Positions 12,629 to 58,570 are shown, counted from the first letter of the stretch. The stretch is 64,000 bases of DNA from a virus (IMGVR_UViG_3300021431_000076:32001-96000); one strand, 5' to 3'. Numbers and translations are program-made. Notes: a model not told the origin generated them from the letters alone.

Positions 12629-12722
12629 GAAATAGTGTGAAATTTAGAACTATTTCCCAACTCCTTATTATATATCCTTTCGTTTGGAGACTAGGTTAAT
12701 TTTATCCTAGTCTTATTTTTTT
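12629..12722 (+). ncRNA. Candidate early small RNA with anti-SD segments
   Basis: Early promoter at 12615; 5' hairpin GAAATAGT/ACTATTTC; unpaired CUCCUU and UCCUUUC; terminator at 12688-12722; no ORF. Confidence 0.55.
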
Positions 12723-12758
12723 AGTAAACCAAAAAATAGAGATATACTATATAAATGA

Positions 12759-12784
12759 ATCAGTAAAGCTTAAGCTTTACTGAT
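12759..12784. repeat. Perfect 26-bp palindrome at the start of an early transcript
   Basis: ATCAGTAAAGCTT-AAGCTTTACTGAT, directly after promoter 12743-12757. Confidence 0.9.
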
Positions 12785-12906
12785 ATTCTATTCTCTTTAT
12801 GGGATTAGTTATTTTTTCTTTGAAGATAAGCATGTTTAGGATTCTACTATTCCTAAAACATCTTATTGATACAATCATCTATATTATTTAAGGAGGTCAT
12901 ATTATT

Positions 12907-13671
12907 ATGGCAGCATTTGAAGGTTTCCAAGGTTCTAACGAATCCAGATTTTCTCCGACAGTTTATGGTTACTCTTTCAGTAACTCAGAGTCGGTTGTAG
13001 ACAAATCCAATATTCAGTTTTCTATGTGGAAGACTACTATCAAGATTTCTATTTCTCCATTGATTGATACCGGCACAAATGAATGGAGAGTAGATCGTAA
13101 GAATGCTATTTCTGCATATCTTATTCCATCTAAAGCAATGATGTTTGCTGATATACTTATGAAGTATAAACAAGATCCTGAGAAATATAATAACTGGGGT
13201 GTTGCTTCTGGCTCTGCATATATCTCTGTTATTAATCCAAAATCTATCAAACCTAATGCAGAAGGATTTGCCATTATTAATATCCGTCGTATTTCTACTG
13301 AAGGTGTAGTAGAAGCATCTTATTCTTATGAAGTCAAAGCTGGTGGCACATATAATGCTGTTATTGGTTTTGATGAAAAGAAAGGAACATTCTCTCAGGA
13401 CTTTGATACTTATGCATCTACTGAACTTGATTTGATTGCTATTCAGCTTATGCAATATGCTAAGGCTATGAGTAATGCTGTAGCATTTACAGTAACCAAT
13501 AATCAATATGATTATCTTGATAAGATTGCTCAGAAAGTTGGTGCAGACTTCTCTGGTGGATATGCCAAGACTTATACTAATCAATCATATTTTAGTCAGT
13601 CTGGTGCTCAGCAACAGCAGTCCGTTCAGCCTCCAATGAGTGCAGGACTTGAATCTCTGATTGGACAATAA
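12907..13671 (+). CDS. Hypothetical protein, possibly a single-stranded DNA-binding protein
   Basis: 254 aa; beta-rich N-part and Q/S/G-rich tail; both early (12743) and late-like (12857, AACA-N6-TG) promoters; function is a guess. Confidence 0.4.
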   Translation: MAAFEGFQGSNESRFSPTVYGYSFSNSESVVDKSNIQFSMWKTTIKISISPLIDTGTNEWRVDRKNAISAYLIPSKAMMFADILMKYKQDPEKYNNWGVASGSAYISVINPKSIKPNAEGFAIINIRRISTEGVVEASYSYEVKAGGTYNAVIGFDEKKGTFSQDFDTYASTELDLIAIQLMQYAKAMSNAVAFTVTNNQYDYLDKIAQKVGADFSGGYAKTYTNQSYFSQSGAQQQQSVQPPMSAGLESLIGQ

Positions 13672-13740
13672 TCCAAATAGAAACTTTTGTAAGTAGAGTA
13701 CTTTTCGAGTACTCTACTTATTTTTTCGTGAGGAAACATT

Positions 13741-14448
13741 ATGCTTTCAGATTTAATACATGGAAGAGCATCTATAAGAGTAGATCCTAATAAAAAGGGA
13801 AGAGAATTTAAATATATTCTTTGTTCTTTTGAAAGTCTATTTGATATAGATATTGGTTGTGTTGCTTATATCTTAATTTCTTTTAAAGATAGTAAGTATA
13901 TCAAACCAGAAGCATATAACTATACTCCATTATTTGTTCAATATCAATTAGTTCATAGAGACTCTATTAATCCATTATCTATCATCTTTAAAGATGAATA
14001 TAAGGACCAAATAGATAATCTGTATAATGAATTGCTAGATAATAAGAAAGATGACATTATCAAATTATCATATCAAACTTATCTAGCAGTTTTAGTAGAT
14101 CAATTAAAGATAATGGGTGGATATACTATTGAAGTTGAATGTGAATCAGATATTGAAAAAGAAAAAGTATCTAAATTAGGTTTAACTCCAGTAGATTACC
14201 AAGAAAACTTAGATAAGTATTTTACTCTAATTTTAAAATCTCCAAAAGATTTAAAAGATAGGTTACTGTTTACCGGCAAAACTGTATATCTATGGAATAC
14301 TTCTATCAATTATTTTGATATGAAGAAAGGTGTAGAGAATGAAATACTTACAGATGAGATCATAGCTCTTATGGGTCAGAAAAATGTAATAAAGATGATA
14401 GACCCTTATCAATATACAGAAGAGCTTGATGATAATAAGGAGGAATAA
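13741..14448 (+). CDS. Hypothetical protein
   Basis: 235-aa ORF with RBS; adjoins the chaperonin gene. Confidence 0.6.
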   Translation: MLSDLIHGRASIRVDPNKKGREFKYILCSFESLFDIDIGCVAYILISFKDSKYIKPEAYNYTPLFVQYQLVHRDSINPLSIIFKDEYKDQIDNLYNELLDNKKDDIIKLSYQTYLAVLVDQLKIMGGYTIEVECESDIEKEKVSKLGLTPVDYQENLDKYFTLILKSPKDLKDRLLFTGKTVYLWNTSINYFDMKKGVENEILTDEIIALMGQKNVIKMIDPYQYTEELDDNKEE

Positions 14449-14452
14449 CAAC

Positions 14453-16351
14453 ATGGCTTTTAATCTAGTCACAAATGTAGTAGATGAAACTCAATTAAGA
14501 CAAGCTCAACTTAGAGCTCTTGAATTATTTGCAACTACTGTAAGAGGCACTTATGGTCCTATGGGTGAATATACTGCTTATAGTATGCAAGATCCATCTA
14601 ATAAACTTAAAGCTATTGTATCTTACTATACTAAAGATGGTTTTACCGTATTAAAACATGTAGATACTGATAAACCAATAGAATCTCTTCTTAAAGATGA
14701 TATTCGTACTATTTGTACTCATGTTATTAAGACTATTGGTGACGGTACTACATCTGCTACTATATTATCATATCTTATCTTTAAAGGTCTTTTGGATCTT
14801 CAGTATCAGAAAAAACTTCCCAAAAGAAAGATTATCAAAGCATTCAAAGAAATTATTAAAGAAGGTATTGCAGAAATTGAATCTAAGGGAAGAGAATGTA
14901 CAGTAGATGATATCTATAATATCGCGTATACATCTCTTAATGGTAATGAAGAGATGGCTAATATTATAACAGATATTTATAAAGAGAGTGGTATGGATGT
15001 ATTTATTGATGTAAGCGCATCCAATACTAAAGATACTGTGGTTAAGACTTATAATTCTCTTGCTTATGAAGCAGGATATATAGATCCATGCTTTATCAAT
15101 AATGAACAAGATAATACTGTAGATTACCGCAATCCTCATATCTATGTATTTGAATCTCCTATTGACACTCCAGATATGATTAATACTCTTAAATTGATTT
15201 TCATGAAAGAAGTTAAAGATCCTATTGAAAAATATCAGCAAGCATTAAATAAAGGCAAACAACCAGATATTTCTTTGTCTCCAGTATTGATTATTTGTCC
15301 TCATATTTCTAGAGATGCCAATAGCTTCATTGATCAACTCATTGTAGAGTTTACTAATATGAAGATGGCTCAACGTCCTCAATTCTGTATTGTATCTAAT
15401 ATTGATAACGACAATGGATATCTTTTAGATATTATGAAACTCACTGAAGCTAAGTTCATTAAGAAATATATTGACAAAGAATCTTATGAAATTGATAAGA
15501 AAGTTGGTCTAGCTCCTAATGAACTAAATATTAGAACATTTGCTGGTACTGCAGAACGTGTAGTAGTAGATGCTCTTACTACTAAGATTATCAATCCAAA
15601 ACAGATGTATGATGAAAATGGTGAGTATACAGAGTTTTATACTAACTATATCAAACAATTAGAAGATCTTCTTAAGAAGTACGAAGAAACTAGAGAAGAG
15701 ATTGTTAAGATAGGTAAGCTCAAGAGACGTATCAATATTATCAAAGCAAATATGGTAGATCTCTATGTAGGTGGTATTGGCACTACAGATAGAATGGCTT
15801 TATCAGATTCTGTAGAAGATGCTGTTCTTAACTGTCGTTCTGCTGCTGCTGATGGTGTTGGTTATGCAGCAAACTATGAAGGTTTAAGAGCATTCAATAA
15901 GATTCTTACTAAATATGATGCTGAATTTAAAGCAGCAGAAGATAGTAAGCAAGCTCTTATTAACAAAGAAGTAGCAACAGTTATAGCTAAATCTTACTTA
16001 GACCTTTGTGCTCTTATCTATGTACCTTATTGTGATGATAATATTGAAGATGCTATGAATATAGTAGTTCTATCTTTAGCAAATTCTAATGAAAATAAGA
16101 GAAAACCGTTTAATATTTTGACAGAGGAGTATGATGATCTTGTGCTCACTTCTATCAAAACTGAACCAGCTATCCTCGAAGCTATATCTCGTATTATCAC
16201 TACTCTTTACAATACTAATCAGTTCTTGGTTCCTGATCCAAGATTCAATATCTACCAAATGGATAAAGATGATGAAGAGTATAAGAAACAAAAAGAAGAA
16301 ATGAATAAAGTAGAACAGAAACCTGCTCCTTCTGATGGAATGAAAAAATAA
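14453..16351 (+). CDS. groEL: GroEL-like phage chaperonin
   Basis: TYGPMG, TKDGFTV, GDGTTSAT and VEDAVL motifs; start moved to ATG 14453 behind AAGGAGG. Confidence 0.93.
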   Translation: MAFNLVTNVVDETQLRQAQLRALELFATTVRGTYGPMGEYTAYSMQDPSNKLKAIVSYYTKDGFTVLKHVDTDKPIESLLKDDIRTICTHVIKTIGDGTTSATILSYLIFKGLLDLQYQKKLPKRKIIKAFKEIIKEGIAEIESKGRECTVDDIYNIAYTSLNGNEEMANIITDIYKESGMDVFIDVSASNTKDTVVKTYNSLAYEAGYIDPCFINNEQDNTVDYRNPHIYVFESPIDTPDMINTLKLIFMKEVKDPIEKYQQALNKGKQPDISLSPVLIICPHISRDANSFIDQLIVEFTNMKMAQRPQFCIVSNIDNDNGYLLDIMKLTEAKFIKKYIDKESYEIDKKVGLAPNELNIRTFAGTAERVVVDALTTKIINPKQMYDENGEYTEFYTNYIKQLEDLLKKYEETREEIVKIGKLKRRINIIKANMVDLYVGGIGTTDRMALSDSVEDAVLNCRSAAADGVGYAANYEGLRAFNKILTKYDAEFKAAEDSKQALINKEVATVIAKSYLDLCALIYVPYCDDNIEDAMNIVVLSLANSNENKRKPFNILTEEYDDLVLTSIKTEPAILEAISRIITTLYNTNQFLVPDPRFNIYQMDKDDEEYKKQKEEMNKVEQKPAPSDGMKK

Positions 16352-16474
16352 AATTCTAAATTAAAACGTACAAAATAATAGTGCGTTTCTGCTATTTACT
16401 CTTAACTAATGTGGAGTAGCTTTGGTCGGCTACTCCACATTTTAGTCAAAGAGAAATTTAGAAGGTGAATTGTA

Positions 16475-17269
16475 ATGACCAAACTAACATTTGATAACTG
16501 GATTAAGAATCCAACAGGTGCTAGACCAATGATGGTTCAGCAAAGAGAAATGGCTAGACAGATTTATACTGATAAATATAATAAAATGATGCTGGCATCT
16601 GCTGGAGCTATGAATTATACTTTATGGAAATCACAAAAGGGAGATAGATTTATTGTCTTCTTTACAATACCATCAGAATCTACCCAAAAAGTATTCTATG
16701 ATGTAGTTATTGAATTCTATACGAGAGATACAATAGAAACTCAAAAGAATAATCTAAATGGGTATTATGTGAAATTCTTTTCTAATGATCCTAACTTTAC
16801 GTTTACATTTGCCTATGTATATAACAAAGAAGGATTAATAATTCAGGACCTGAAAAAGAAACTATCTGCTCAGTCTATTACAGATAGACCTAAGATCACC
16901 AATCCTAATAAAGTGGTAGGATGGGTAAAAGCATTTTACTTTGCATACTTGTATATGAATGACCATGGTCTATTCAATAAATTGAATTGGTTAAATGCAT
17001 ATACTCTACAATCTCAACTTACAACTTGTATTAATAATGTAATGGATGCACAAAAGAAATTAGTCCAAGTTCAATCTCTGAAAGAACTCCAAGATTCTAA
17101 AAAGAATCCAAAAATTCCTAATATTGGAAATACCAATGATTTAGAATCTCTAAAATATAAAGCTAAAAGCACTAAGAATGTAGATAAAATGAAGAGTGTG
17201 ATTAGCAAGATATCTAGAGATAATGTTAAAAGAGCTAATAAAGTCAAATATTCAAAAAGAATAAAATGA
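16475..17269 (+). CDS. Hypothetical basic protein
   Basis: 264-aa ORF with AAGGTG RBS. Confidence 0.6.
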   Translation: MTKLTFDNWIKNPTGARPMMVQQREMARQIYTDKYNKMMLASAGAMNYTLWKSQKGDRFIVFFTIPSESTQKVFYDVVIEFYTRDTIETQKNNLNGYYVKFFSNDPNFTFTFAYVYNKEGLIIQDLKKKLSAQSITDRPKITNPNKVVGWVKAFYFAYLYMNDHGLFNKLNWLNAYTLQSQLTTCINNVMDAQKKLVQVQSLKELQDSKKNPKIPNIGNTNDLESLKYKAKSTKNVDKMKSVISKISRDNVKRANKVKYSKRIK

Positions 17270-17351
17270 CATTAGGAGGTTTCTAAAAATAGGCATATAC
17301 TATTAAATTGGTATAGGGAGAAAGTAGCATTAAGGAAGAAGGAGACACAAG

Positions 17352-19151
17352 ATGAACTACAAAAATGCCAATGAACTTCATAACGAAGGTATAGGGGATA
17401 TTCCTTATGGAGATGATAGATTCTATAGACCTAGAATCAAACTTAATCGGGCATTATACAAAGAAGGAGAATTGATACCTGTAGTAGATTTTGTTGACCA
17501 TAGTATCTTTAAAGAAGGAGATATGATAGCAAAGCATGACTTTGCTAATGCTCTAAAAGGTCAACCTGCACCTAATGTTGTTTTTAATGCAACAAAACCA
17601 CCTATTGATCAATGGCAACCAACATGTGCTGAAGACATGATCTTCACACATATTAGAGGAGCTATCATAGCACCAGTTCACAAATTTTTTAATATGTCAG
17701 ATGACGATAGAGCAAATGACATGTTTGACTATTTCTATGTGACTGCTAAGAGATGTTATAATTCTGATACTAAAGTGAAACCAGATGGAGAAATATCTAT
17801 CGGATTTAGAGATCATTGTACCAGCTATCTGAACTATTTTGAAAAGTACTATGATACAGATTTGCAGTTGTTAGGACTGTATAAAGAAATCAAATATATG
17901 ATAGATTGTGTTCCTAACTATTCTTTAGAAGCATTCAAGTCTGACCTTTGGAAATACTTTATCAATCCAAATATGTCTTATGTGGCTTGGAAACTGAACT
18001 ATGCTTTGGATAAGATGACCTTGGAACAATTCTCCTTAGATTTGAACTATAAGAACAATAAGTCTCCAGTATTAGAATACTCTCCTTTCCATGCTAAGAT
18101 CATGTTAAAGGTGTCAGTTCAACAGAATATGATTATACCCCTTCTGACTCATTTTATAGTGAAGAAGAAGTATGATCAATCGGAAACTAAGAATATACTT
18201 CTTTCTACTTTTGATTTGTTGTTTCAAGCAGCTGATCTTATATATGGGGTGGATCTCAATTCTAAGATCCTTGAAACAACATCTTCTAACGTTGAGAAGA
18301 ATGTATCAAACAATTTGACTCTTTGGGAAATGCAGACTATAAGAGCAAGAAACACTACTACCCATTCTATGGAGACAGTAGAAAATATAATCATGCAGAT
18401 AATTCCAAAGTATACCTATTCAAAGAACATCATTCACTTTAATTACAATGCTATCAATAGAGATATCAAATTCAAAGTAACTGGAGTACCATATGAGTTT
18501 GGTTTTGTTATGCTATCCTCTTCTATAAGAGATGATGATAACAACTCTGAATGTGATAAGTTTGAAGCTCATTCTGCTAAACTGAATGAAGCTACTATGA
18601 TTCAAACACTCACTAATTGTCAAGAAACAATGAAGAGAATCATACTCAAATATGGTCCATTTGATGAGAATGAAATCATGTTCTATTATAAGAGAATGTG
18701 TAAGAATGGCAAGTTTGTAGTTAATAAACTTCAGAATGTGCTTATTACATATCTCTTTGCTAAAGAGTTTGATGATCCTCAAGCAGTTAAGATTGTAAAT
18801 ATAAAGAACTATATCATTCTTTGTATTACTGCTAGAAGAATGCTTCAATCTTATAACATGTTTCAGTTACCATTCATGATTGGTGGCAAAGTCAATAGAA
18901 TTGTTACTAAGAAGAATATTAATAAGAAAGAACTTCAGAAGATCAAAGCATCTAAGTTCTTTCCATTGATTCATGAGAAGTATAATAATGAGAAGATAGA
19001 GAATGATACTATATTCTCACTCATTGCTCAAGTATTATCTTCTGAGTATGAAACTATTGACTACTATCATAGAGAGAATGATGGTTTGCAAATCAATATC
19101 ATTCCTGATTTAGTATCAGAGGAGTTGTTAAGACTAGTGATGCTTATATGA
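17352..19151 (+). CDS. Probable promoter-specificity (sigma-like) subunit of the non-virion RNAP (AR9 gp226/phiKZ gp68-like)
   Basis: 599-aa helical protein; early promoter at 17296; two genes from the chaperonin, as recalled for AR9 gp228/gp226; inferred from synteny rather than alignment. Confidence 0.5.
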   Translation: MNYKNANELHNEGIGDIPYGDDRFYRPRIKLNRALYKEGELIPVVDFVDHSIFKEGDMIAKHDFANALKGQPAPNVVFNATKPPIDQWQPTCAEDMIFTHIRGAIIAPVHKFFNMSDDDRANDMFDYFYVTAKRCYNSDTKVKPDGEISIGFRDHCTSYLNYFEKYYDTDLQLLGLYKEIKYMIDCVPNYSLEAFKSDLWKYFINPNMSYVAWKLNYALDKMTLEQFSLDLNYKNNKSPVLEYSPFHAKIMLKVSVQQNMIIPLLTHFIVKKKYDQSETKNILLSTFDLLFQAADLIYGVDLNSKILETTSSNVEKNVSNNLTLWEMQTIRARNTTTHSMETVENIIMQIIPKYTYSKNIIHFNYNAINRDIKFKVTGVPYEFGFVMLSSSIRDDDNNSECDKFEAHSAKLNEATMIQTLTNCQETMKRIILKYGPFDENEIMFYYKRMCKNGKFVVNKLQNVLITYLFAKEFDDPQAVKIVNIKNYIILCITARRMLQSYNMFQLPFMIGGKVNRIVTKKNINKKELQKIKASKFFPLIHEKYNNEKIENDTIFSLIAQVLSSEYETIDYYHRENDGLQINIIPDLVSEELLRLVMLI

Positions 19152-20209: not shown

Positions 20210-20224
20210 GGAGGGAATCACAAT

Positions 20225-21007
20225 ATGACAGCTATGAGAAGTGATGAATTACAATCCAAAGCATATATACCTTTTACCATTTTCCATAAAGCTAAGAAAG
20301 TTGATGAAGATGGCAATGTCATCTCAGTAGATGACAAGATTAGTATTAAGGATTTAACCTCAGTCCAGTTTGAGCAGGTTAAGTCTGAGTTTGGACAGGA
20401 CTTTGATAGAATCAAAGATGTATCTATCAATCTTAAGATAAATGATATTTCTCCATTAAGATTATTCGAATATGATCAAGATTATGGTTATCTTCGCCTA
20501 TTCTATATGACCTATACTGATAAGATCAATGTATATCATCCAGAATCTTCTCTATATATAGAAGAGAAAGATCGCATTGATATATTATGTTTAGATACTG
20601 GATTTGATAAGACGTATTCTACAGATTCCACTATCTTCTTAGTATCTGATGTGGTTTCTCTTGATAAAGAGTTTGAAAAACATATTGGATTATTAGAGAA
20701 TACATTTGAAGATGGAGAAATCTTTGATGGTGAATGTATGATTGGTTTAGAGAGTCTTTTAGAAGGAAATCTTCCTGAGTTTGAGATTCTTTATATGGAT
20801 GCTGCAAATCAAATTTATAGTCTTGCTGATATAGCAAAGGCTGATTACCAGCACTTCAAGAAACTTACAGATCATAATCATCTTGAAGCTGTGTTTAGAC
20901 AGTTTGATTATTCTAATCCAACTGTATTCAAGAGAGGAGAATTCTCTTGGTATAATCTGTTCATGAAGCATATTCAGACTCAAACTAAAAGTTTATCATT
21001 AAGCTAA
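20225..21007 (+). CDS. Hypothetical acidic protein
   Basis: 260-aa ORF with GGAGGG RBS. Confidence 0.6.
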   Translation: MTAMRSDELQSKAYIPFTIFHKAKKVDEDGNVISVDDKISIKDLTSVQFEQVKSEFGQDFDRIKDVSINLKINDISPLRLFEYDQDYGYLRLFYMTYTDKINVYHPESSLYIEEKDRIDILCLDTGFDKTYSTDSTIFLVSDVVSLDKEFEKHIGLLENTFEDGEIFDGECMIGLESLLEGNLPEFEILYMDAANQIYSLADIAKADYQHFKKLTDHNHLEAVFRQFDYSNPTVFKRGEFSWYNLFMKHIQTQTKSLSLS

Positions 21008-21016
21008 CATTATATT

Positions 21017-21110
21017 AGTGGTGTGGTGGCCACACGTTGTTAAGCAATGGTGATGTTCCTTTCGGTAAGATTCCCAGTAGCTGTAATGGCTACTGGGAGT
21101 CTTATTGTTT
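21017..21110 (+). ncRNA. Candidate late small RNA
   Basis: Promoter AACA-ttatat-TA at 21006; hairpin GTGTGG/CCACAC; UUCCUUUC at 21056-21063; terminator at 21066-21104; no ORF. Confidence 0.5.
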
Positions 21111-21192
21111 TTGTAAAAATCTATATATTTACATGTATATTATGGTTGTGATGATAGATAAAAATGTTTAAAAATGAAAGGAGATTATCATC

Positions 21193-21408
21193 ATGGAATT
21201 CAAGAAATTGTATGCAAAGGCTTTGTTAACACTGCCGTATGAGCAGTATATGAAACCGAATATTATTTCAATGTTGGCGTATGCGTATGTGTGGCTTAAA
21301 AACCAAAATCAGTATTATATGATATTGTGCACGTCACAATATTATTGTACTGAAGCCAGCATAGAAGAAAGAAAACAGATGGAGGATATTTATGCATCTG
21401 TTTTATAA
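21193..21408 (+). CDS. Small early protein
   Basis: Own early promoter at 21136; GAAAGGAG RBS; terminator at about 21415-21441. Confidence 0.7.
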   Translation: MEFKKLYAKALLTLPYEQYMKPNIISMLAYAYVWLKNQNQYYMILCTSQYYCTEASIEERKQMEDIYASVL

Positions 21409-21481: not shown

Positions 21482-22900
21482 ATGGGTTCTTTTACCAACA
21501 AGCATTACAATGAAACAGTACAAAGTTTAGTACAAGGATCACAAGATCGACTTAAAAACCCGTACTATCTTTTTTCTAATAAATCACCAACAGCTGTAAT
21601 GTATTATAATATAAATCATAAAATGTCTACATTAGATCAAGGAACTAGACAAGTATATGATCATATAGGAGAAAATTCTCCTTTAAGATTTAACAAGATT
21701 ATAGATTTTCAGTTATATGGTATTCCTAGGATAGAGATAGATTATAATGTTGGAGAATATGGTATAGAATCTCCAGTAGAAGGAGAAGCACTAATTCTTC
21801 CTAATACAGTAATACCATGTGTAGATGATATGTTCACTATCAACTATCTAGTTGATAAGCCAGTTATCTTTAGAGTATCAAAGGTATCTATAGATACATT
21901 GGATACAGGATCTAACTTTTATAGAATTCAATACTTTATAGATCGTGTAGATTTAGATGCTCTTAAGTATCTTAATGGTAAGCAGTTAATAAATGAGTAT
22001 GTATATAAGCCTGGTAATATAGGTTCTAATTTAGTATCTGTTATTGCTAAAAAGGATGCCGATATTATAGAGAAATTATCTGAGGCAGCTACAGAAATTC
22101 TACACTACTATGCTGATCTATTCTTTAAACCATCTATACAGACATTTTGTTATCTCTATACAGGGATATTTATCTATGATCCGTATTTGATTGAGTTCTT
22201 AATTAGGAATAAAGTATATGCTGTACCAGACAATGAATATTATATGTATATTTCTCAAGCAGTACATACTCCTAGAACTTTCAATATAGAATATGAACAC
22301 ACTATCTTTAGAGATATAGAAAAAAGAAATCCTAAATTAAGAACTAATTCTTGTTATATGGTTCCTTGTCATGATCCCAATAGTTTACTTATGAATAGAA
22401 TGGAAGACTATTTTGAATTATCTATTAATCTTAAGAATAAACCATTCTCTCCTCCTATCAATTGGTTGAATATGGAACTATTTGATAGAATAGTAAATAA
22501 TAATCTATACGACGTGGATGACCCAGATGCTCCTATATATAGAAATATCATTATCAGGTGGATGAATGATAAATCATACACTGTAACTGATGAAGAGTTA
22601 GAGAATCTTATCAATCTATCTTATCATCCATGCAAAGATCTATTCTATGAGATTCCTATTTTGTTATTTATTCTAAATGATATAGTAACTGGTTTACAAG
22701 TAGATCTTACTAACTTACCATCTAATGGTAATGGTGCTATTGGTAATACTTCTGCTATATCTACTACAAATGCATTAGCAGATGATATTACTGCCGATGA
22801 ATATGCTAATGGTGGAAATTGTAATAGAACTTGTATGTGTCCTAGAGGAGATACATATGAAAAACCAGGATCAGAAGATTCATATTTGACTGGTAGATAA
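21482..22900 (+). CDS. Probable virion structural protein
   Basis: 472 aa; late promoter at 21442; AAGGAGG RBS. Confidence 0.55.
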   Translation: MGSFTNKHYNETVQSLVQGSQDRLKNPYYLFSNKSPTAVMYYNINHKMSTLDQGTRQVYDHIGENSPLRFNKIIDFQLYGIPRIEIDYNVGEYGIESPVEGEALILPNTVIPCVDDMFTINYLVDKPVIFRVSKVSIDTLDTGSNFYRIQYFIDRVDLDALKYLNGKQLINEYVYKPGNIGSNLVSVIAKKDADIIEKLSEAATEILHYYADLFFKPSIQTFCYLYTGIFIYDPYLIEFLIRNKVYAVPDNEYYMYISQAVHTPRTFNIEYEHTIFRDIEKRNPKLRTNSCYMVPCHDPNSLLMNRMEDYFELSINLKNKPFSPPINWLNMELFDRIVNNNLYDVDDPDAPIYRNIIIRWMNDKSYTVTDEELENLINLSYHPCKDLFYEIPILLFILNDIVTGLQVDLTNLPSNGNGAIGNTSAISTTNALADDITADEYANGGNCNRTCMCPRGDTYEKPGSEDSYLTGR

Positions 22901-23171
22901 AAAAAAGAATGGAGTTGGTATACCAAGCCAACTCCTGGGAATTAGAAATGTTAATTTGATTGGGGACCAAGTTATGTTAATTGATTTTGTGTATAAATTT
23001 AAGGAGGGTTGTTCACCTCTTTCTTTTATTTTACTCTATTAACTATACTAACAAATGATGTTAATATAAATATATATAAAACTTAACATAACTTGGGAAC
23101 ATTTCATACCCTAAATTAAACCTTCTACCTATTTCCTTACATTACCCATGGGGAAATATTGCTTCGGTTTC
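22899..23171 (-). ncRNA. Candidate structured early RNA (about 270 nt), possibly carrying a 19-codon hydrophobic mini-ORF
   Basis: Early promoter at 23178-23185; 14-bp inverted repeat 22967-22980/23083-23096; CCCUCCUU; terminator hairpin 22911-22935 with T-run. Confidence 0.4.
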
Positions 23172-23235
23172 ATATTAATAATATATAATTGAAAAAATGT
23201 TTATTTTACCAGAATAGGGCAATCCCTATTCTGGT

Positions 23236-31398: not shown

Positions 31399-31410
31399 AG
31401 GGATAATATA

Positions 31411-44807: not shown

Positions 44808-44811
44808 CACT

Positions 44812-44913
44812 AAACTCCCACTGCTCTGTTTCGAGCAGTGGGAATCTATAAGGAGGTATATATTAACAACAACAAGCAAAACAGAAAATGATACCGGCAT
44901 ATCATCATCCATT
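44812..44913 (-). ncRNA. Candidate late small RNA with a perfect anti-SD ACCUCCUUA
   Basis: GACA-atagta-TA promoter at 44913-44924; 5' hairpin; U-rich linker; ACCUCCUUA (44849-44857); shares the portal terminator hairpin 44817-44842. Confidence 0.55.
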
Positions 44914-44980
44914 ATACTATTGTCAAAAAAAATGAGGGACCTTTTTACAGGTCCCCCATTTTTAATGTGGTGCTATATTA

Positions 44981-45505: not shown

Positions 45506-45646
45506 GATAAAGATCTCCTTTCAAATCAAACATGTAACACTTAATCTCTAGTGTTACTTCTCTTTATCACGACTATAATATACGTTTGAAAAATTCGATT
45601 TTTACAAAAAATAAGGTATAGGGATTTCTCCCTATACCTAGTATTA

Positions 45647-45814
45647 TTATTTCTTAGATGGTAATGACTTTTCTTTTGATTCTATAGGGGTATTAATCAT
45701 AGTCATATTAGATTTACCATTTACATCAAACTTAGTACCAAAGAATTTAGTCCATAGTTTAGCCAAGTCCTCAAATTCTTTTGTATCTAGCTCAATCTCA
45801 AGTTCAATCTTCAT
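45647..45814 (-). CDS. 55-aa hypothetical protein (not in the ORF track)
   Basis: MKIELEIELDTKEFEDLAKLWTKFF...; GAGGTG RBS overlapping the helicase stop; terminator at 45614-45640. Confidence 0.6.
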   Translation of the reverse strand: MKIELEIELDTKEFEDLAKLWTKFFGTKFDVNGKSNMTMINTPIESKEKSLPSKK

Positions 45815-45820
45815 ATTTAC

Positions 45821-47368: not shown

Positions 47369-47570
47369 TCTTTTTCACCATAGCTTTAAGTTTGTTAGGA
47401 GCTTGACCTACTATTTCATTGAATTCCTTATTGGCTTCTTTAAGATTATCACTACCAAATATATTGATAGTTTTATCTTTCAGTACATAGAATACATAGA
47501 TTCCAATACCAAAAGCTAAACTAAATACTAAGATAAACAAAGAGAATTGCTTAACAGTTTCTACAGTCAT
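47361..47570 (-). CDS. Small single-TM protein
   Basis: Start at MTVETVK behind GGAGG; one hydrophobic helix. Confidence 0.6.
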   Translation of the reverse strand: MTVETVKQFSLFILVFSLAFGIGIYVFYVLKDKTINIFGSDNLKEANKEFNEIVGQAPNKLKAMVKKND

Positions 47571-47637
47571 ACTAAAACCTCCAAATAAAATATAGGAGAT
47601 GGGAATTCCCATCTCCTAATTGTCAAACTAAAATTAT

Positions 47638-49914
47638 TTATTCATCTAATCTATGCTTCTCGTATCCTTTAGGTCTTAAAGCATCCATGAAAGCTTTACT
47701 ATCAACAATCTCAGGATGACCAGGAACAACCCACATTACTGGACTAGTTCCTTCAGGAACAATCTTCTCATGACACTTATCCCATACTTCATGATCTACA
47801 TTCATATATTTTACAGGTTTATGCATATAGAATGGATCGAAGCAAGAAGTCTTAGTCTTCTTATAAGTCATGGGTTTATGAAGAGCTCTAGCAATATCCT
47901 GATATTTGAGAGATACTATAACAGATCTATTGTTAGACAAAGCTTCCTTAAGAGTTAATACTTCATAAGGCTCATTGTATCTACTCCAATCAGGCATCTC
48001 AAATCTATCATAAGCACTTCTAATCTGATTTGCTATAATGATTTCAAGATGTACAGAACGACAGTGAATCTTCCCTCTAATAACAGCATCAACAAGCTTC
48101 ATAATAAGCTCATCAATATTATACTGCTTAGTTATATCTTTCTTATCAATAAGATCAGTAAAGATATCCAATGCTTTACCAAGGTCATTATTCATCATCT
48201 TAAGATAGAACAGCTCCATATCTTGAAGTTCCATTAATGGAATTTCTAATACAGATTCGCTAAGATTATCTTCAGTTTCAGGAGAATCTTTAAGTTTATC
48301 TCTAATTATAGCAGTAAGAGCATTAGAGAAATACATTCTAGCTTTAGTATCATCCCCAGATTCCTTATCTATAATAGAAGATATAGCATATTCAGTTCCA
48401 TCAGGAGACTTGATAGTCATATCAGTGATATACTCATTATAGATCTCTGCTGTATCATCAGTAGTATCAAACTGACCATTGGAATAGAAGATATGCTTAA
48501 AGAAGTCACCATCATTCTCAAGCTGTACATCTTCACCCTTAATGATTAAACTCCATCCATCAAGACTTTCTATAGTCGGGAAAGTTTCATCATTAAGAAG
48601 AATAGCATTAGTATCTACTCTGAAGAACTTATAGAAATCCAATACCCAATTGATTGCTCTAATAACTGTCTCTAACAGATGCTTAGCAGACAATCTCATC
48701 TGAGTATACTGAGATGTGATTATCTCTGTAGCAATACGACCAACATTTATATCTCTATTGGTTCTTGCTAACTCACCATAACAATGTCTACAAATACCTT
48801 TACCCATAGCAAAAGATTTGCACATAGCAGGAGTTCTAAGGTAAATCCACTTACCTATAAGATTAGTACAATCTTTAGTAATCAAGAACTCAAAGCCATT
48901 TAATTCCATACGAGCATATCTATCAATGAAATGCTCTAACACTTCTTTATCTTTAATAAAGATATGAGCAAGATTATTTGTATGACAGTCATAATCCATA
49001 TCTGGATTTAAGAAAGTATCAATATTATTCAGACCTAAGATACGAGAGAATCCACCAGAGTCTCCTACATTCTTCTTAGAGATAATCTGTGCATTTCTTG
49101 CAGAATAAGCATCAATGTAGAAATACAGGAGATTGTCAAGACCACCAGTGATATAGGAAGTATTTACAATATCATGCAAGATACTACCATGACCATCAGG
49201 TTTGGTACCAATATTAAATGAATTTTCTTTCCATTGACGTTTATTGATACCTTCTTTAGCAGCAAATGGATTTCTTAAGCAATGTTCATGTCCCATGATT
49301 TTCTTAGAATCCATAAGCAATTCTATAGCTCTATCTGCTGCTTCCAAACCTCTATCTTTTACTTCTTCTAGAGGTATATTAGAATAGTCTTTATGAATCA
49401 AGTCATCATATTCAGGACAAGCATCCATCATCTCTATAGTATCTTCCAGATTCAATGTATTAGCAATATAGAAAGAAAAATCATCCACATCAAGGAAATT
49501 ATAGAGACAATCTGCTATGATATTATTCATAAGCACATTGTCCATATTCTCTCTTCGTTCTGTGATAAAATGTTTGTCAATAAATTTCTTGATATGACCA
49601 CTATTAGTATGCTTAGCAAATACTAAATGCCATGGCTTAATCTCTCTATCTCCATTGGCAATAATAGCATACCAGAGTATAATATTAAAAAAGTAATCGG
49701 TGATGCTAAGATCAACAGAATCTCCATTACCGAAATCAACGGTAATGAACATATGTTGTACATAGTCAGTCTCAATTCCATCCTTCATAATACTGAGAAT
49801 TCCATCATAATGGTTTCTCCAATTCTCTATGACTATATCTTTTGTATGAATAGTCATCTTTTGTTTTTGAACCAGCTCAGTGTACACATAGTAGTTGTTC
49901 AGATTCTCCAACAT
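47638..49914 (-). CDS. rpoC: RNA polymerase beta' C-terminal-half subunit (non-virion RNAP)
   Basis: Bridge helix (VGDSGGFSR), Zn site (LRTPAMC...GICRHCYG), trigger loop (TQMRLSAKH) and HLEIII; early promoter at 50016. Confidence 0.9.
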   Translation of the reverse strand: MLENLNNYYVYTELVQKQKMTIHTKDIVIENWRNHYDGILSIMKDGIETDYVQHMFITVDFGNGDSVDLSITDYFFNIILWYAIIANGDREIKPWHLVFAKHTNSGHIKKFIDKHFITERRENMDNVLMNNIIADCLYNFLDVDDFSFYIANTLNLEDTIEMMDACPEYDDLIHKDYSNIPLEEVKDRGLEAADRAIELLMDSKKIMGHEHCLRNPFAAKEGINKRQWKENSFNIGTKPDGHGSILHDIVNTSYITGGLDNLLYFYIDAYSARNAQIISKKNVGDSGGFSRILGLNNIDTFLNPDMDYDCHTNNLAHIFIKDKEVLEHFIDRYARMELNGFEFLITKDCTNLIGKWIYLRTPAMCKSFAMGKGICRHCYGELARTNRDINVGRIATEIITSQYTQMRLSAKHLLETVIRAINWVLDFYKFFRVDTNAILLNDETFPTIESLDGWSLIIKGEDVQLENDGDFFKHIFYSNGQFDTTDDTAEIYNEYITDMTIKSPDGTEYAISSIIDKESGDDTKARMYFSNALTAIIRDKLKDSPETEDNLSESVLEIPLMELQDMELFYLKMMNNDLGKALDIFTDLIDKKDITKQYNIDELIMKLVDAVIRGKIHCRSVHLEIIIANQIRSAYDRFEMPDWSRYNEPYEVLTLKEALSNNRSVIVSLKYQDIARALHKPMTYKKTKTSCFDPFYMHKPVKYMNVDHEVWDKCHEKIVPEGTSPVMWVVPGHPEIVDSKAFMDALRPKGYEKHRLDE

Positions 49915-50043
49915 GCTGTTTCCTCTCCTTTAGAAAAAATTCATAAAATACCCTTATTGATATAATGTGCTGAAAGGTATTAAAAGTTATTATCCTTTCC
50001 TCCTTTCTCATTTATATAGTATATCTCTGTTTTTTAGTTTACC

Positions 50044-50212
50044 AAAAAAAATGAACTTCCTTGTTCATTTTATCTAAATGATATAGTGACGAGTATATTG
50101 CAAGCTGATTTTTTTTGAGTGTTTTTTATGGCAAGATATATATTATTGGCTACACATATATCTTAGTTATTGAAGGGATTATAGGTGGGTGTCATCCTTG
50201 ACTCACTATATC
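50044..50212 (-). ncRNA. Candidate early multi-stem small RNA with two CANGGANG hairpin loops
   Basis: Early promoter at 50219-50226; 10-bp closing stem 50203-50212/50080-50089; internal hairpins; terminator at 50044-50071; no ORF. Confidence 0.6.
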
Positions 50213-50257
50213 ATTATAATAATATATAATTGAAAAATTTTTTACTTAAACAATATT

Positions 50258-50400
50258 GCACCAGTAGAGTCAACAGACTCTACTGGTTAGAGGTTTGTAG
50301 TAAAAGAAAGCAGAATTAAGATGAGAACTGAAAGGTCATATACTTATAGGGGAAAGTACATGATAAGAAGTATAATAGTTAGGGGTCTATCATCTTCTTT
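50258..50400 (-). ncRNA. Candidate late small RNA with several C/U-rich motifs
   Basis: TACA-tctaaa-TA promoter at 50400-50411; closing stem AAGAUGA/UCAUCUU; CCCCU, UUCCCCU and CCUUUC; terminator hairpin at 50261-50286. Confidence 0.5.
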
Positions 50401-50448
50401 ATTTAGATGTAAAAACCTCTCTAGGGATTTCTCCCTAGAGAGTTTATT

Positions 50449-50925
50449 TTAACGAACAACTTTAGTCATATCAAATGCTCTTGGAGAGAGCTTAATGAGT
50501 TTCTGTTGTGCTTTCTTAGCATCTCTACGAACCATGTTATTGTACTTCTTATAAATTCTATCAAGTAACTGACGTTCCTTAATACGATTCTTTCTAAGAA
50601 GTTCAAAGTCATTATCGCCTTTTTCACGAGCCATTTGCATTGATGCAAGCATAATACGACGATCAAGGTCAGCCTGTTTGCTCATACGAACAATAGCTTT
50701 ACGACCAACTACACCTGCTTCTTCTAAATATTTAAATTCATCAGAATTTAGATATTCATTTCTTTCAGCTTCATTCATAGATGCTACTCTATCTACAATC
50801 AAAGCTTCTAAGAAAGCAGCAGTATCAGTAATACCTTCTCCACCTTCTACGTTTTCATAAGTTTCATCCAGACTATCTACTGTCTGGAGATCTGCACTTT
50901 CATCAAGATTTCTAAATAATGGCAT
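50449..50925 (-). CDS. Probable internal head protein (acidic N-terminus, basic C-terminus)
   Basis: Late promoter at 50983-50994; LDES/LEEA protease-site-like motifs. Confidence 0.6.
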   Translation of the reverse strand: MPLFRNLDESADLQTVDSLDETYENVEGGEGITDTAAFLEALIVDRVASMNEAERNEYLNSDEFKYLEEAGVVGRKAIVRMSKQADLDRRIMLASMQMAREKGDNDFELLRKNRIKERQLLDRIYKKYNNMVRRDAKKAQQKLIKLSPRAFDMTKVVR

Positions 50926-51046
50926 TGTTAATTACCTCCTATATAGGAATTATTTGCTATAGCAAACACAAGTATAGTGTTTTATTGTAATGTTTTAGAA
51001 AGAAAGTTGTAGAGTAAAAAATTTTTTAGATATATATTATTTTATT

Positions 51047-51134
51047 GAGTAGCAAAGAGAGATGGTAAGAGGTAGAGGCAACCACCTCTCTACTCCTATC
51101 AACTTTACATACACACTCCTCTACCTCTTTTTTT
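51047..51134 (+). promoter_or_regulatory. Structured leader (pseudoknot or terminator/antiterminator) before the DNA polymerase operon
   Basis: Stem 51047-51066/51081-51095; its loop AAGAGGTAGAGG (51067-51078) is complementary to CCTCTACCTCTT (51118-51129), which is followed by a T-run. Confidence 0.6.
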
Positions 51135-51199
51135 AATAAACCATGATTTTCACACTAAGAGTAAGAAGCAGAATTTATCTGAACAAGGAGAATAAAATC

Positions 51200-51529
51200 A
51201 TGGTCTATTATTATGCTGAAAAGATAGATAATATTGTTTTAGTTACAGAATTCGTATTATCTGCTAAATCCAGTTCTTCTAAATCTTATGCTTATTATGA
51301 TAACCGTAGGTTATTATTTGAAGAAACTTTAGTATCCTCTATTAAAAATAATAAAATAGAAAGTGTGGTGAATGATATTCTTAAAAGACTTATTAAGAGG
51401 ATACTGAATGAAACCAATAAAACTTTTATTAGTGATGAATTGGTGAATAAACTGAGATGCTATATTTTAGAGACATTAGAAACAGAATTGGAGGAGAATA
51501 AACAATGGATGAAAAAGAAATCAATATAA
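51200..51529 (+). CDS. Hypothetical protein
   Basis: Start at MVYYYAEK behind AAGGAG. Confidence 0.6.
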   Translation: MVYYYAEKIDNIVLVTEFVLSAKSSSSKSYAYYDNRRLLFEETLVSSIKNNKIESVVNDILKRLIKRILNETNKTFISDELVNKLRCYILETLETELEENKQWMKKKSI

Positions 51530-51855
51530 TCACTGGTTTTAAGGCTTTCCCAAGATTACATTTATATATGCAGACACATAGAAAGATGTGTAATGACTGT
51601 CATGTAGACTTTTTCATCATATTGAAGAATGAAAAGAGATTTCTTCACAGATTCTATTTAGTAGATGCCCTAGGATTAGGAAGATATGATCCTAATAAAC
51701 TTAAGAAGTTTATTAATTGGACTAAGGATAGTATGGTTAAGTATACTGAAACAATGTTATCGAAGAGTTCAGTCGAATTAAACTCCCAAGCATGGGATAA
51801 CATTAGTATGACCTATTATGAGGTTATATCTAAAATATGTGAGGAGAATAAGTAA
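51505..51855 (+). CDS. Hypothetical protein
   Basis: GGAGGAG RBS; coupled to the polymerase gene. Confidence 0.6.
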   Translation: MDEKEINIITGFKAFPRLHLYMQTHRKMCNDCHVDFFIILKNEKRFLHRFYLVDALGLGRYDPNKLKKFINWTKDSMVKYTETMLSKSSVELNSQAWDNISMTYYEVISKICEENK

Positions 51856-53979: not shown

Positions 53980-54052
53980 TACAATTACCCTAGGAGATTG
54001 AATTCTCCTAGGGTAAATTTATTTTTAGTAATATACTATTTATAAGAAGGAG

Positions 54053-55582: not shown

Positions 55583-56535
55583 ATGAAAATGAAAATAAAG
55601 TGGGGGATTCTAATCCTCCACTTAAAGAAGTATGCAAGTTTACCAAATCTATATATCCTGATTTAATAACTGGATATCCAATAGAGTATTATAATATGTA
55701 TAAATATATGACTGATACTCTGATGTGGTTACATGATTCAGGTATAATAGTGACATTCAATCTATATGCATCTGGTAAAATAAAACCATCTGTTGGTACT
55801 GAAGTATATGGATTTTATCATACTAGGGAAAATAAAGATAGTGCAATAAATATCAATAGAAACTTTTCTTATTGCATTTGTATAGAAACAACCAAGCTTT
55901 TTAATAGTAATCATGGATTAACAGATTCTTGTAGAGTTACTTTATTCTCAGAAGCCTTATCTGTATTTAAGTATACAGCAGTACCTAAAATATTAGATTG
56001 GTATAATAATCCATCTAAATATATAGCTGCTAATCCTAAAGATAAAACAAAATATTCAGCTAGTTTTAAAAAGGGAATTAAAGCAGAGAATGTAACTGCA
56101 GTGCTATTAGATAAAGATAGAAAAGCTTCTATTATATTCGAAGCTTGTCCAGAAAATGATGGAGAAGGAGGAAGTACTGGTAAACTTAATATAGGATTGC
56201 ATATTGCTGATCAGTTTATTTATCTTCCCTGGAATAAAATGTTTGAGTTTATTCATATAGTAATAGATATGAATCATCAGTTATACGCATCTACTATGTT
56301 ATCATTTATAGGAATGGCTCCAGTTGGTATAGGAATGGAACCAGAATATATGGCTAAATATAGTAAATTAAAAAATCAACCAAAGAAGCTAAGTTTAAAG
56401 GATACATCTTATTTTGCAAACTTCAATAAGACTAAAACCTTAGGGGATGCTGTTAAACTTGCTAATAGTATGGTTACTAGTACTATTGAAGAAAAATTTA
56501 GAAAGGAGCATGATTTAGATGACAACAAAAAGTAG
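55579..56535 (+). CDS. Hypothetical protein
   Basis: 318-aa ORF with ATGA overlap. Confidence 0.6.
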   Translation: MNENENKVGDSNPPLKEVCKFTKSIYPDLITGYPIEYYNMYKYMTDTLMWLHDSGIIVTFNLYASGKIKPSVGTEVYGFYHTRENKDSAININRNFSYCICIETTKLFNSNHGLTDSCRVTLFSEALSVFKYTAVPKILDWYNNPSKYIAANPKDKTKYSASFKKGIKAENVTAVLLDKDRKASIIFEACPENDGEGGSTGKLNIGLHIADQFIYLPWNKMFEFIHIVIDMNHQLYASTMLSFIGMAPVGIGMEPEYMAKYSKLKNQPKKLSLKDTSYFANFNKTKTLGDAVKLANSMVTSTIEEKFRKEHDLDDNKK

Positions 56536-57547
56536 CAATGAATATATTAAATATACTAAAGAAACCATAAAGAAAGGAGCTAGAGCAGGAGTATATAATA
56601 CCAATCTTGATGTTATGGACTATAATTATTTGATAGGCGACTTTGGAGGATCAACAGTAACTTTGATCAATATAAAAACAGGTATGATTCATACTTGTAA
56701 TCCATCTGATATTTATATGCCAGGAGGCGAATCAAAGAATTATCTTGATTACGATCAAGAAGTTATGAAAGTAGGAGATAAAGTATGTTTTAGAGCAAAT
56801 GAAAGCAATGCTTTATTTGAGATTACAAAAGTCAATCCTGTAGAACAGAGTTGCAATCTTTATTCTAAAACTGGAACAAGACTTTATGATATTCCACTAA
56901 GCTATCTCAGATTTGCTTATAAAACTGATTCTGTAAAAGAAGAAGAGAGCAAAGTAATTCAATTAAATAAAAAAGTAGAGGAGAAAAAGAATATGTCTAA
57001 AACTAAGAAAGATAATGCTATCAAGAAAGCTTTTGATGAGAAACAAAAAACACTACTGAAAACAGCAGATAAGAAAAAAGAAGATGAAGGAGAGGATTTT
57101 GAGTTTGGTGATATCACTATCACAATAAAGAAGAAAGGTAAAGGTATATTGGTTAAATGTAAAGATGATATGTACTATGGAACAGCATTCATAGACAATT
57201 ATCAAGGAAATGATATGACTTCTATTGCTTCTGCTATTCAATCTGCATTTGAAAACTTCTGTGATGAAGATAGAAGAAAAAGAGTCAATATGTTTGTTCC
57301 AGAGATAGGAGAGAACTATCTTCGTTATTCTATGATTAATGAAGAAGATAAACCCAATGAATCTAAATTAGAATGGGTTAATTGGAATGGTTCTTTTAAT
57401 TGCCTTATGGATTTAGAGATAGGAAATGTATATAGAGATGGCCATGAAGCTAAATCTGATTTCTATCGTCTGAAGAATATTATGTTACAGAAGCAGAAAC
57501 AAATTATTGAGAAGCTCAATAAAGTTGATATTGACGAGGAGGAATAA
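56519..57547 (+). CDS. Hypothetical protein with SH3/KOW-like segments
   Basis: MKVGDKVCF motif; AAGGAG RBS. Confidence 0.55.
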   Translation: MTTKSSNEYIKYTKETIKKGARAGVYNTNLDVMDYNYLIGDFGGSTVTLINIKTGMIHTCNPSDIYMPGGESKNYLDYDQEVMKVGDKVCFRANESNALFEITKVNPVEQSCNLYSKTGTRLYDIPLSYLRFAYKTDSVKEEESKVIQLNKKVEEKKNMSKTKKDNAIKKAFDEKQKTLLKTADKKKEDEGEDFEFGDITITIKKKGKGILVKCKDDMYYGTAFIDNYQGNDMTSIASAIQSAFENFCDEDRRKRVNMFVPEIGENYLRYSMINEEDKPNESKLEWVNWNGSFNCLMDLEIGNVYRDGHEAKSDFYRLKNIMLQKQKQIIEKLNKVDIDEEE

Positions 57548-57549
57548 TC

Positions 57550-58473
57550 ATGGATAACAACGAATTCAAAATAGGGGATATTATTAAAATTTCCAATCCT
57601 ATTATTAAAAAGCATAAGAAATTCTTAAACATGGTAGGAAAAATAGTATCTTTATCAGACACTAATATTCCTGCTTTAGATGTTATCCCTACAGCATTTA
57701 TTAAATTTCCATATAATGTAAATGGAGATTTTGAATTTCTTATAGAAGAAATAGAACTTACTGATAGAAAAAATTATAACGAACCAGAGCCAGTAAAGAA
57801 ACCTGAATTTGAAGGACATAAATTCCACAAAGCTACTCAAGATGAATTGAAAGCAAATGACGTCCCTATCATTCCTGATGGAAAAGGTTTTAATAATATT
57901 AGAACTGTAAAATGGAATTTGGGAGATAATTATCCTTGGACTGAACGTGTTTATGCTGATAAGAGTGATCATCAGTTTATCAAAGATTATGTTCTTGGAA
58001 ATGTATTTCGTCCCTATAAAGAAGGAGATCCAGAGATCAATATTGATCGAGAACGATCAGTCTATAATAGAATCTACTCTTTATATAATAAACAATTAGA
58101 CTGGGCCTGGATTGAACGTAAGGTCTATAATAACCATAGACGTACTTGCTATGATAAAGCTGGTAATGCAACCTTCAAGAAAGAATGGGATATTACTAAA
58201 GTAGCTTCTGGTTGGAAAACTCAACTTGGAAATACTAAGAATATTCTCTATAGTAAGTTTGGCAAAGAAAGATTCTATTATCACTTTGCTTTCTGTGGAA
58301 ATAAATTCCGTATTGTTAAAGTTCTCTTCCCAATTGAGCAGGATAATGATATTGTTTTCGAAAGAGCTTGTATGGACTATGCTCTTGGCAATTTCTTTAT
58401 CAGCAAAAAGGATGCTAAACGTAGTCTCATGTTCCAGAAGATTAAGACCTTCTTCAAGTATGATGAAATCTAA
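57550..58473 (+). CDS. Hypothetical protein with an N-terminal KOW-like segment and internally repeated (L/I)GN(V/F)F motif
   Basis: FKIGDIIKI; DYVLGNVF and DYALGNFF; similar DLEIGNVY in the upstream gene. Confidence 0.55.
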   Translation: MDNNEFKIGDIIKISNPIIKKHKKFLNMVGKIVSLSDTNIPALDVIPTAFIKFPYNVNGDFEFLIEEIELTDRKNYNEPEPVKKPEFEGHKFHKATQDELKANDVPIIPDGKGFNNIRTVKWNLGDNYPWTERVYADKSDHQFIKDYVLGNVFRPYKEGDPEINIDRERSVYNRIYSLYNKQLDWAWIERKVYNNHRRTCYDKAGNATFKKEWDITKVASGWKTQLGNTKNILYSKFGKERFYYHFAFCGNKFRIVKVLFPIEQDNDIVFERACMDYALGNFFISKKDAKRSLMFQKIKTFFKYDEI

Positions 58474-58496
58474 AAATATAATGTGGACATTATAGT

Positions 58497-58570
58497 ATCC
58501 AAGCTAACCTTTACTTTGCCATAGTAAAAGCCCACCCTGTAGCCTTAATTGGCTACAGGGTAAATTTTTT
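58497..58570 (+). ncRNA. Candidate short late RNA with an anticodon-like stem-loop
   Basis: GACA-ttatag-TA at 58486; TTTACT-TTGCCAT-AGTAAA hairpin; terminator at 58534-58570. Confidence 0.35.

Follow-up and report, generated by a model that had tools for sequence, protein, structure and literature searches.

Several giant phages that carry their own multisubunit RNA polymerases (RNAPs) offer a reference for promoter-to-terminator transcripts. In 201phi2-1, 11 small RNAs (sRNAs) shorter than 250 nucleotides (nt) have been described, each with a transcription start site (TSS) closely followed by a transcription termination site (TTS) (PMC11512511). The PBS1-like phage AR9 uses early promoters of the form AAATATATATTAT-N6-G and late promoters of the form AACA-N6-TA/G, and its predicted terminators were shown to work for the phage RNAPs (PMC5312081). 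Here we analyse a 64,000-nt stretch of DNA (the window) covering bases 32001-96000 of a 332,775-base pair (bp) IMG/VR virus record (IMGVR_UViG_3300021431_000076; 31% G+C). The original prediction described eight intergenic units in this window, running from a phage promoter to an intrinsic terminator with no gene inside, as a timed set of early and late sRNAs that expose anti-Shine-Dalgarno (anti-SD) tracts. Its observation was partly confirmed and its interpretation partly supported. The reading that we place slightly above even is that the eight units are not one system: the early ones, together with one overlooked neighbour, would form four non-coding cassettes, the late ones would mainly be hairpins of adjacent genes, and occlusion of Shine-Dalgarno (SD) sites would be possible for three units only. 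Units are numbered 1-9 as in Table 1.

The genes of the window encode split multisubunit RNAP subunits, a GroEL-like protein, a primase, a DNA polymerase and virion proteins. Judged by the split RNAP subunits and the other gene content, the uncultured source is a jumbo phage of the AR9/PBS1/phiR1-37 kind that uses AR9-type promoters. With AR9 it would share the early and late promoter code, effective terminators, tandem early promoters, long 5' untranslated regions (UTRs) and late antisense RNAs (PMC5312081); it differs in that AR9 has no described sRNAs, and protein identity between the two phages is very low. A megablast search of public phage records returned nothing, and no transfer RNAs or transfer-messenger RNAs were found. 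The closest relative, IMGVR_UViG_3300028048_000040 (hereafter the sister phage), is 87% identical in aligned coding sequence and 90% identical in intergenic regions, and more distant relatives compared for synteny share 35-69% protein identity. A third relative (L084; Ga0326512_10032359) aligns to window positions 13489-17405 at ~91% DNA identity, proving that genomes at intermediate distance exist.

The promoter code behind the original prediction is sound. A genome-derived matrix seeded with the AR9 early consensus identified 87 sites, 82 of them intergenic, though intergenic DNA makes up 8.3% of the genome. Most sites lie 12-90 nt upstream of a start codon, and the early-promoter motif in this phage is real. 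Units 1, 4, 6 and 9 each start from such a promoter, with 0-1 mismatches to the AAATATATATTAT-type 13-nt AT-rich element (scores of 23-38 bits) and a G start 6 nt downstream of it. From there each runs for 90-270 nt without an SD-led open reading frame (ORF) to a hairpin and U-run. Small-ORF candidates within the early units have codon scores in the off-frame, non-coding range; among those rejected as genes, both without an SD, were a 19-amino acid (aa) ORF in unit 4, whose sister-phage copy carries a frameshift, and a 76-aa ORF in the body that replaces unit 6 in the sister phage. The predicted folds of units 1, 4 and 6 are far stabler than shuffles (z = -2.7 to -4.3), and a 5' hairpin begins 26% of all early transcripts compared with 6.6% of shuffles. 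Genome-wide, we count about ten non-coding early promoter-to-terminator units, and two further early cassettes hold SD-led micro-ORFs of 13 and 21 aa. The units share no common sequence family, every body being unique. An Rfam scan of the window units and eight further early units across the genome produced no match reaching the gathering score, and relaxing the limit to E <= 1 added none of relevance.

We propose that an AR9-type promoter of the virion RNAP drives a non-coding body of 90-270 nt, often opening with a 5' hairpin and closing with a hairpin and U-run. Such cassettes would be made early as short stable RNAs, with bodies under weak or fast-changing constraint, and would be the counterparts of the TSS-to-TTS small RNAs observed by experiment in 201phi2-1. 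On this evidence units 1, 4, 6 and 9 are probably real short non-coding early RNAs.

The predicted fold of unit 1 opens with a 5' stem (12629-12656), continues through an unpaired tract that holds ACUCCUUA and UCCUUUC, and closes with a terminator hairpin followed by U7. Its promoter, 5' stem and unpaired ACUCCUU are kept in the sister phage, where a 38-nt hairpin has been inserted and the terminator stem is different. The stem carries one compensatory change, from A-U to G-C. The second promoter, P2 (TSS 12757), is the real messenger RNA (mRNA) promoter for gene 12907-13671. Unit 6 follows the same order as unit 1: a first early promoter, a short RNA, a terminator, 'AGTAAA', a second early promoter (TSS 12757 and 50009, respectively), a leader and a gene, an arrangement that recurs elsewhere in the genome. 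A predicted 10-bp stem ties the 5' end of unit 6 to the segment preceding its terminator. In the sister phage, the body of unit 6 is swapped for an unrelated ~265-nt sequence that is itself tightly folded (predicted -79.5 kcal/mol), while promoter and terminator position are kept. We considered unit 6 as a 6S RNA and rejected it: across 44700-51300 no 6S model matched at E <= 1, the sister phage has an unrelated body, and the predicted structure leaves large loops open within a closing stem, in contrast to the 6S rod with its central bubble.

Units 4 and 9 are placed differently. Unit 4 is the only truly orphan unit, because its downstream gene is convergent. It is 90% identical in the sister phage, with changes at 25 of 125 unpaired positions versus 10 of 148 stem positions, and its predicted fold is more stable than shuffles (z = -4.3). 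Its CCCUCCUU at 23008-23001 is partly paired, and the CUCCUU is kept in the sister phage. The central domain is closed by a perfect 14-bp long-range inverted repeat, 23076-23089 / 22966-22979 on the minus strand (CCAAGTTATGTTAA / TTAACATAACTTGG), which is also intact there. Unit 9 is a leader-terminator ahead of the DNA-polymerase operon; a 64-nt leader, ending at window position 51199, separates it from gene 51200 and holds no second promoter. In the sister phage, the arms of its terminator stem are conserved, the middle is rewritten and CUCCU is lost.

All four early cassettes are known only from this phage and its sister, where each keeps its position, promoter and terminator (only the terminator stem of unit 1 has changed). 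The bodies are 44% (unit 1), 4% (unit 6), 76% (unit 9) and 90% (unit 4) identical. With the adjacent mRNA leaders at 95-98% identity, no DNA in the vicinity changes faster than the bodies of units 1, 6 and 9. Relatives at 35-69% protein identity preserve synteny and yet lack units 1-4, 6 and 7 at the corresponding positions; in place of units 1, 3, 4, 6 and 7 they have just a terminator, a single promoter and a simple leader. When 46 related loci were searched automatically for units of this kind, the hits were mostly 5' hairpins mis-called as terminators, and no clear homologue emerged. The sister phage retains the motif and layout of units 1, 4 and 5, and the relative L128 those of unit 5; the motif of unit 9 is lost and the body of unit 6 swapped. 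The early units are probably small-RNA genes that are lineage-specific and mostly fast-evolving.

Such turnover also fits empty or decayed cassettes, that is, insulated promoter-gene-terminator modules that recombine at conserved ends and whose gene was lost or never present, leaving them transcribed and functionless. The junction of terminator, 'AGTAAA' and promoter recurs genome-wide, some short cassettes still hold SD-led micro-ORFs as in AR9, and several units begin with SD-like purine runs and no ORF. The uniqueness of all bodies, the wholesale swap of one of them and the low conservation of units 1, 6 and 9 relative to their surroundings point the same way. However, the stable folds of units 1, 4 and 6, the compensatory change in unit 1 and the conservation of unit 4 stems relative to loops speak against decay, and a replacement body as tightly folded as that of the sister phage is not expected of decayed coding DNA. 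We regard functionless remnants as unlikely.

The position of units 1, 6 and 9, on the same strand and directly upstream of gene 12907, the RNAP beta-like gene 47638 and the DNA-polymerase operon at 51200, raises another explanation: they may be cis-acting leaders, either attenuators or read-through 5' extensions that tune the downstream gene, for example through an anti-SD masking the gene's own SD. Without a second promoter after unit 9, the operon would need terminator read-through or the late promoter at 50976, and 8 of the 11 sRNAs of 201phi2-1 are 5'-UTR-derived by premature termination (PMC11512511). A separate strong early promoter follows units 1 and 6, however, and makes attenuation pointless, and unit 4 has no gene downstream. 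Alternative antiterminator pairing was not seen in the predicted folds, and distant relatives make do with a single promoter and plain leader. We regard regulation in cis as very unlikely.

Separate early sRNA cassettes, the reading we prefer, fit the 201phi2-1 kind of TSS-to-TTS sRNA, by prediction. The sRNAs of 201phi2-1 and phiKZ, found by ONT-cappable-seq (PMC11512511), likewise belong to jumbo phages with their own multisubunit RNAPs and run from promoter to terminator without a coding sequence, mostly within 5' UTRs and in a few cases between genes. Their terminators lie within 250 nt, which predicted units 1, 6 and 9 match and unit 4, at 273 nt, exceeds. Those sRNAs were seen as transcripts, whereas the units described here are predicted from sequence. 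One of those sRNAs is conserved across genera, unlike the present units, which are confined to two sister genomes. The hosts differ as well, being Pseudomonas in those cases and an SD-strong, Bacillota-like bacterium here. If the early cassettes are transcribed, Gram-positive-type jumbo phages would extend the short list of giant phages with known small RNAs, and such RNAs would be able to turn over as cassettes between near-identical genomes, hinting at a role in an arms race or in host adaptation.

The late units did not stand up in the same way. The coordinates and sequences of all eight predicted units are correct, and early units 1, 4 and 6 are upheld as promoter-to-terminator units; the late class is not. 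The late motif [AG]ACA-N6-TA is itself probably real, being under-represented in coding DNA and frequently placed 19-60 nt upstream of genes; its intergenic count (86) is near the base-composition expectation of ~60. Among the late units, the exact AACA-N6-TA occurs in unit 3 only. Units 5 and 8 carry the GACA variant, the most intergenic-enriched form (35 of 88 GACA sites are intergenic), and units 2 and 7 carry TACA, a mismatch that is weakly enriched. We found the motif upstream of a terminator-like hairpin with no gene between in 18 of 212 hairpins, compared with 12-21 for spacings of N4, N5, N7 and N8 and 21-33 for scrambled motifs. The late units as a class are therefore no more than chance, the late motif being low in information. 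The coherent eight-member timed repertoire that had been envisaged is not supported. The five late units would mainly be 3'-end or leader hairpins of neighbouring genes, preceded by a short late-motif match.

An intrinsic terminator had been assigned to every unit. A hairpin followed by a U-run is present in units 1, 3, 4, 6, 8 and 9 (run lengths in Table 1), and a proper U-tract is lacking in units 2, 5 and 7: unit 2 has only UUUU, which is lost in the related sequences L009 and L084 and hence absent in two of the three sequences; unit 5 has none; and that of unit 7 is weak at most. The layout of 5' stem, open tract and hairpin is predicted for units 1, 3, 5 and 7, although a hairpin at the 5' end is a general trait of the phage's early transcripts. 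The likeliest reading of unit 2 is a leader or 3'-end hairpin rather than an sRNA of its own. Unit 3 folds into two small hairpins, an open UUCCUUUCGG and the terminator; its sister-phage copy is 89% identical, and more distant relatives lack it at this position. Beside it, window positions 21120-21408, comprising an early promoter and a 71-aa gene (21193-21408), are missing from the sister phage and form a lineage-specific insertion. Unit 7 sits between the terminator of gene 50449 and unit 6 and is 99% identical in the sister phage. It is absent at its position in ~20 related lineages, although L121 and L122 have a late-type unit there that is analogous to it but unrelated. A 43-aa ORF opposite unit 7 and an 83-aa ORF beginning at the unit 5 TSS were both dismissed as genes, with off-frame codon scores and no SD.

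Of the late units, only 5 and 8 are plausible as separate late RNAs; they are more credible because the GACA variant directly follows a terminator, as at bona fide late promoters. The 3' hairpin of unit 5 abuts the stop of gene 42396-44807. The unit is identical in the sister phage, and in L128, at 61% identity, CCUCCUUAUA and a hairpin occur at the same place. The plus strand of unit 5 reads as an orphan SD, and in L128 the other strand reads as an SD with an 8-codon ORF. In the sister phage, unit 8 keeps a late motif (as AACA-N6-TA) and the hairpin around a different body. At ~100% identity in the sister phage, units 5 and 7 are uninformative there either way. In a further relative (L150; G001:C1), the coding strand of the 3' UTR of the 42396 ortholog has a cluster of three anti-SD motifs spread over ~70 nt (CAACCUCCUUUCCGUCCUCCCAG ... 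GAUCCUCCGAUC), a stronger candidate for an anti-SD RNA than any unit of the window.

The remaining claim was that the open pyrimidine tracts of early and late trans-acting sRNAs mimic the 3' tail of 16S ribosomal RNA and block SD sites of phage or host. Anti-SD cores of at least six letters occur only in units 1 (ACUCCUUA), 4 (CCCUCCUU) and 5 (ACCUCCUUA), and most of the tracts do not copy the tail. Genome-wide, 16S-tail-type hexamers have a density of 30 per kilobase (kb) antisense to real ribosome-binding sites (RBSs) and 1.1 per kb in other intergenic DNA; the eight units, with 3 sites in 1013 nt, are not enriched over the latter (p = 0.10). Nor does the best duplex energy with an SD probe exceed that of dinucleotide shuffles across the eight (Fisher p = 0.23), unit 5 alone standing out (p = 0.01). 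In duplex scans of 343 phage RBS windows, pairing exceeds that of shuffles for units 4 and 5 but not for units 1, 3, 6 and 7, and no extended match to a specific target was outstanding among these windows. SD occlusion may thus be possible for units 1, 4 and 5 only, and is not a property of the whole set.

Several observations favour the broader model. Besides exposing CUCCUU-type cores in units 1, 4 and 5 and pairing above shuffles in units 4 and 5, the tracts of units 1 (ACUCCUU) and 4 (CUCCUU) outlast local divergence in the sister phage, and CCUCCUUAUA reappears at the unit 5 position of the 61% relative. On the other side, the eight units are not enriched, five of the six tracts tested, or of the eight units, cannot be told from shuffles, and the late class is no commoner than chance. 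The sister phage has lost CUCCU from unit 9 and swapped the body of unit 6, and units 1-4, 6 and 7 are not kept in place at 35-69% identity. A generic anti-SD would also need extreme abundance to titrate RBSs, and the motif of unit 5 is equally an orphan SD on its other strand. We consider a timed set of anti-SD sRNAs quite unlikely.

Some points nevertheless weigh against our preferred division into early cassettes and incidental late hairpins. First, the unbiased set of ten early non-coding units shows a modest excess of SD complementarity (Fisher p = 0.0016 and 0.006), set against control values of 0.2 for 3' regions, 0.2 for early mRNA leaders and 0.06 for antisense strands, and hexamer density in early units is 3.4 per kb compared with 1.1 per kb elsewhere (p = 0.03). 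An anti-SD function of early units may therefore be more general than we favour, and these values also speak for the timed-set model. Second, late motifs persist in relatives at units 5 and 8, and dismissing the late class may be too harsh for both. Third, how strong the promoters are and how efficiently transcription ends are predictions from the sequence.

Bacillota trans-acting sRNAs with C-rich or anti-SD motifs, such as RsaE/RoxS and Staphylococcus aureus RNAIII, combine unpaired C/U-rich motifs with flanking hairpins and an intrinsic terminator. By prediction, the units resemble these RNAs in having unpaired C/U motifs that could pair with GGAGG-type SDs, flanking hairpins and a terminator. 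They differ in lacking an Rfam match and broad conservation, and in placing the motifs in linear linkers instead of repeated UCCC loop motifs. Short promoter-to-terminator RNAs are also made by other phages, as with lambda OOP and the c4 RNA of P1/P7, which masks an RBS. OOP and c4 have defined cis or near-cis targets with extended complementarity, whereas none was found for the units here among the 343 RBS windows, and no Rfam C4 match was obtained.

A bolder combination of these elements would have AR9-like gut and rumen jumbo phages carry hypervariable early sRNA cassettes in a fixed frame of virion-RNAP promoter and terminator, with bodies swapped or rewritten between sisters and a subset (units 1, 4 and late unit 5) acting as 16S-tail mimics that occlude SD sites. 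We hold this to be rather improbable; if true, it would represent a fast-evolving, RNA-level layer of translational control or host takeover. For annotation, a short AR9-type late motif beside a terminator is not evidence of an sRNA gene, and an anti-SD pentamer or hexamer is common in AT-rich phage intergenic DNA, at ~1 per kb per strand outside true RBS antisense.

Table 1. Promoters, leaders and units of the window, with predicted TSSs, in window coordinates.
Feature	Position	Strand	TSS	Description
Early promoter P1 of unit 1	12610..12622	+	12629 (G)	Perfect AAATATATATTAT; virion-RNAP type
Unit 1	12629..12722	+	12629	Predicted non-coding early RNA, 94 nt; fold, no ORF; U7
P2 and leader of gene 12907-13671	12738..12906	+	12757	P2 = AGAGATATACTAT; 150-nt leader, 97% identical in sister phage
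Unit 2	16369..16443	+	16380	Conserved intergenic element between GroEL-like gene and gene 16475; TACA-N6-TA, 13-bp hairpin
Unit 3	21006..21110	+	21017	3' region of gene 20225-21007; AACA overlapping stop codon; 20-bp terminator and U5
Unit 4	22899..23190	-	23171	Predicted structured non-coding RNA, 273 nt; promoter 23190-23178; terminator 22935-22911 and U8
Unit 5	44812..44924	-	44913	GACA-N6-TA directly after terminator U-run; 5' hairpin, open ACCUCCUUA, hairpin without U-tract
Second early promoter and leader of RNAP beta-like gene 47638-49914	49915..50028	-	50009	98% identical in sister phage
Unit 6	50044..50231	-	50212	Predicted non-coding RNA, 169 nt; promoter 50231-50219; terminator and U8
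Unit 7	50258..50411	-	50400	TACA-N6-TA; two 5' hairpins, 48-nt open CU-rich stretch, hairpin with weak U-run
Unit 9	51028..51135	+	51047	Predicted RNA, 89 nt, overlooked in the original prediction; early promoter; long purine/pyrimidine terminator stem and U7
Unit 8	58485..58570	+	58497	GACA-N6-TA; ~35-nt body; hairpin and U6; between convergent genes

Further features were noted around and beyond these units. Next to unit 1, the sister phage is without genes 10552-11790 and 11829-12542(-), a lineage-specific insertion. The two micro-ORF cassettes, both with perfect SDs, lie at G000 96849(-), which is window position 64849 and just outside the window, and at G000 30428(+); their products are a 13-aa peptide (MARFDRGSVVRRR) and an acidic 21-aa peptide. 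In AR9, the long '5' UTRs' of g214 and g248 (L030 181724-182065; L032 210848-211039) each hold an unannotated ORF led by an SD, 15 and 30 aa long, respectively, with a terminator behind the first. Early promoters at window positions 45568(-) and 59858(-) and at G000 96849, 146386 and 239747 share a conserved transcript start (..AGCCGTGATAAAG..), a repeated leader design. Finally, two early-promoter-driven stretches of 350-470 nt, at G000 6232-6700(+) and 193171-193520(+) (L020 and L021), are GC-rich and strongly structured, with no ORF and no Rfam match, and may be larger structured phage RNAs or introns.

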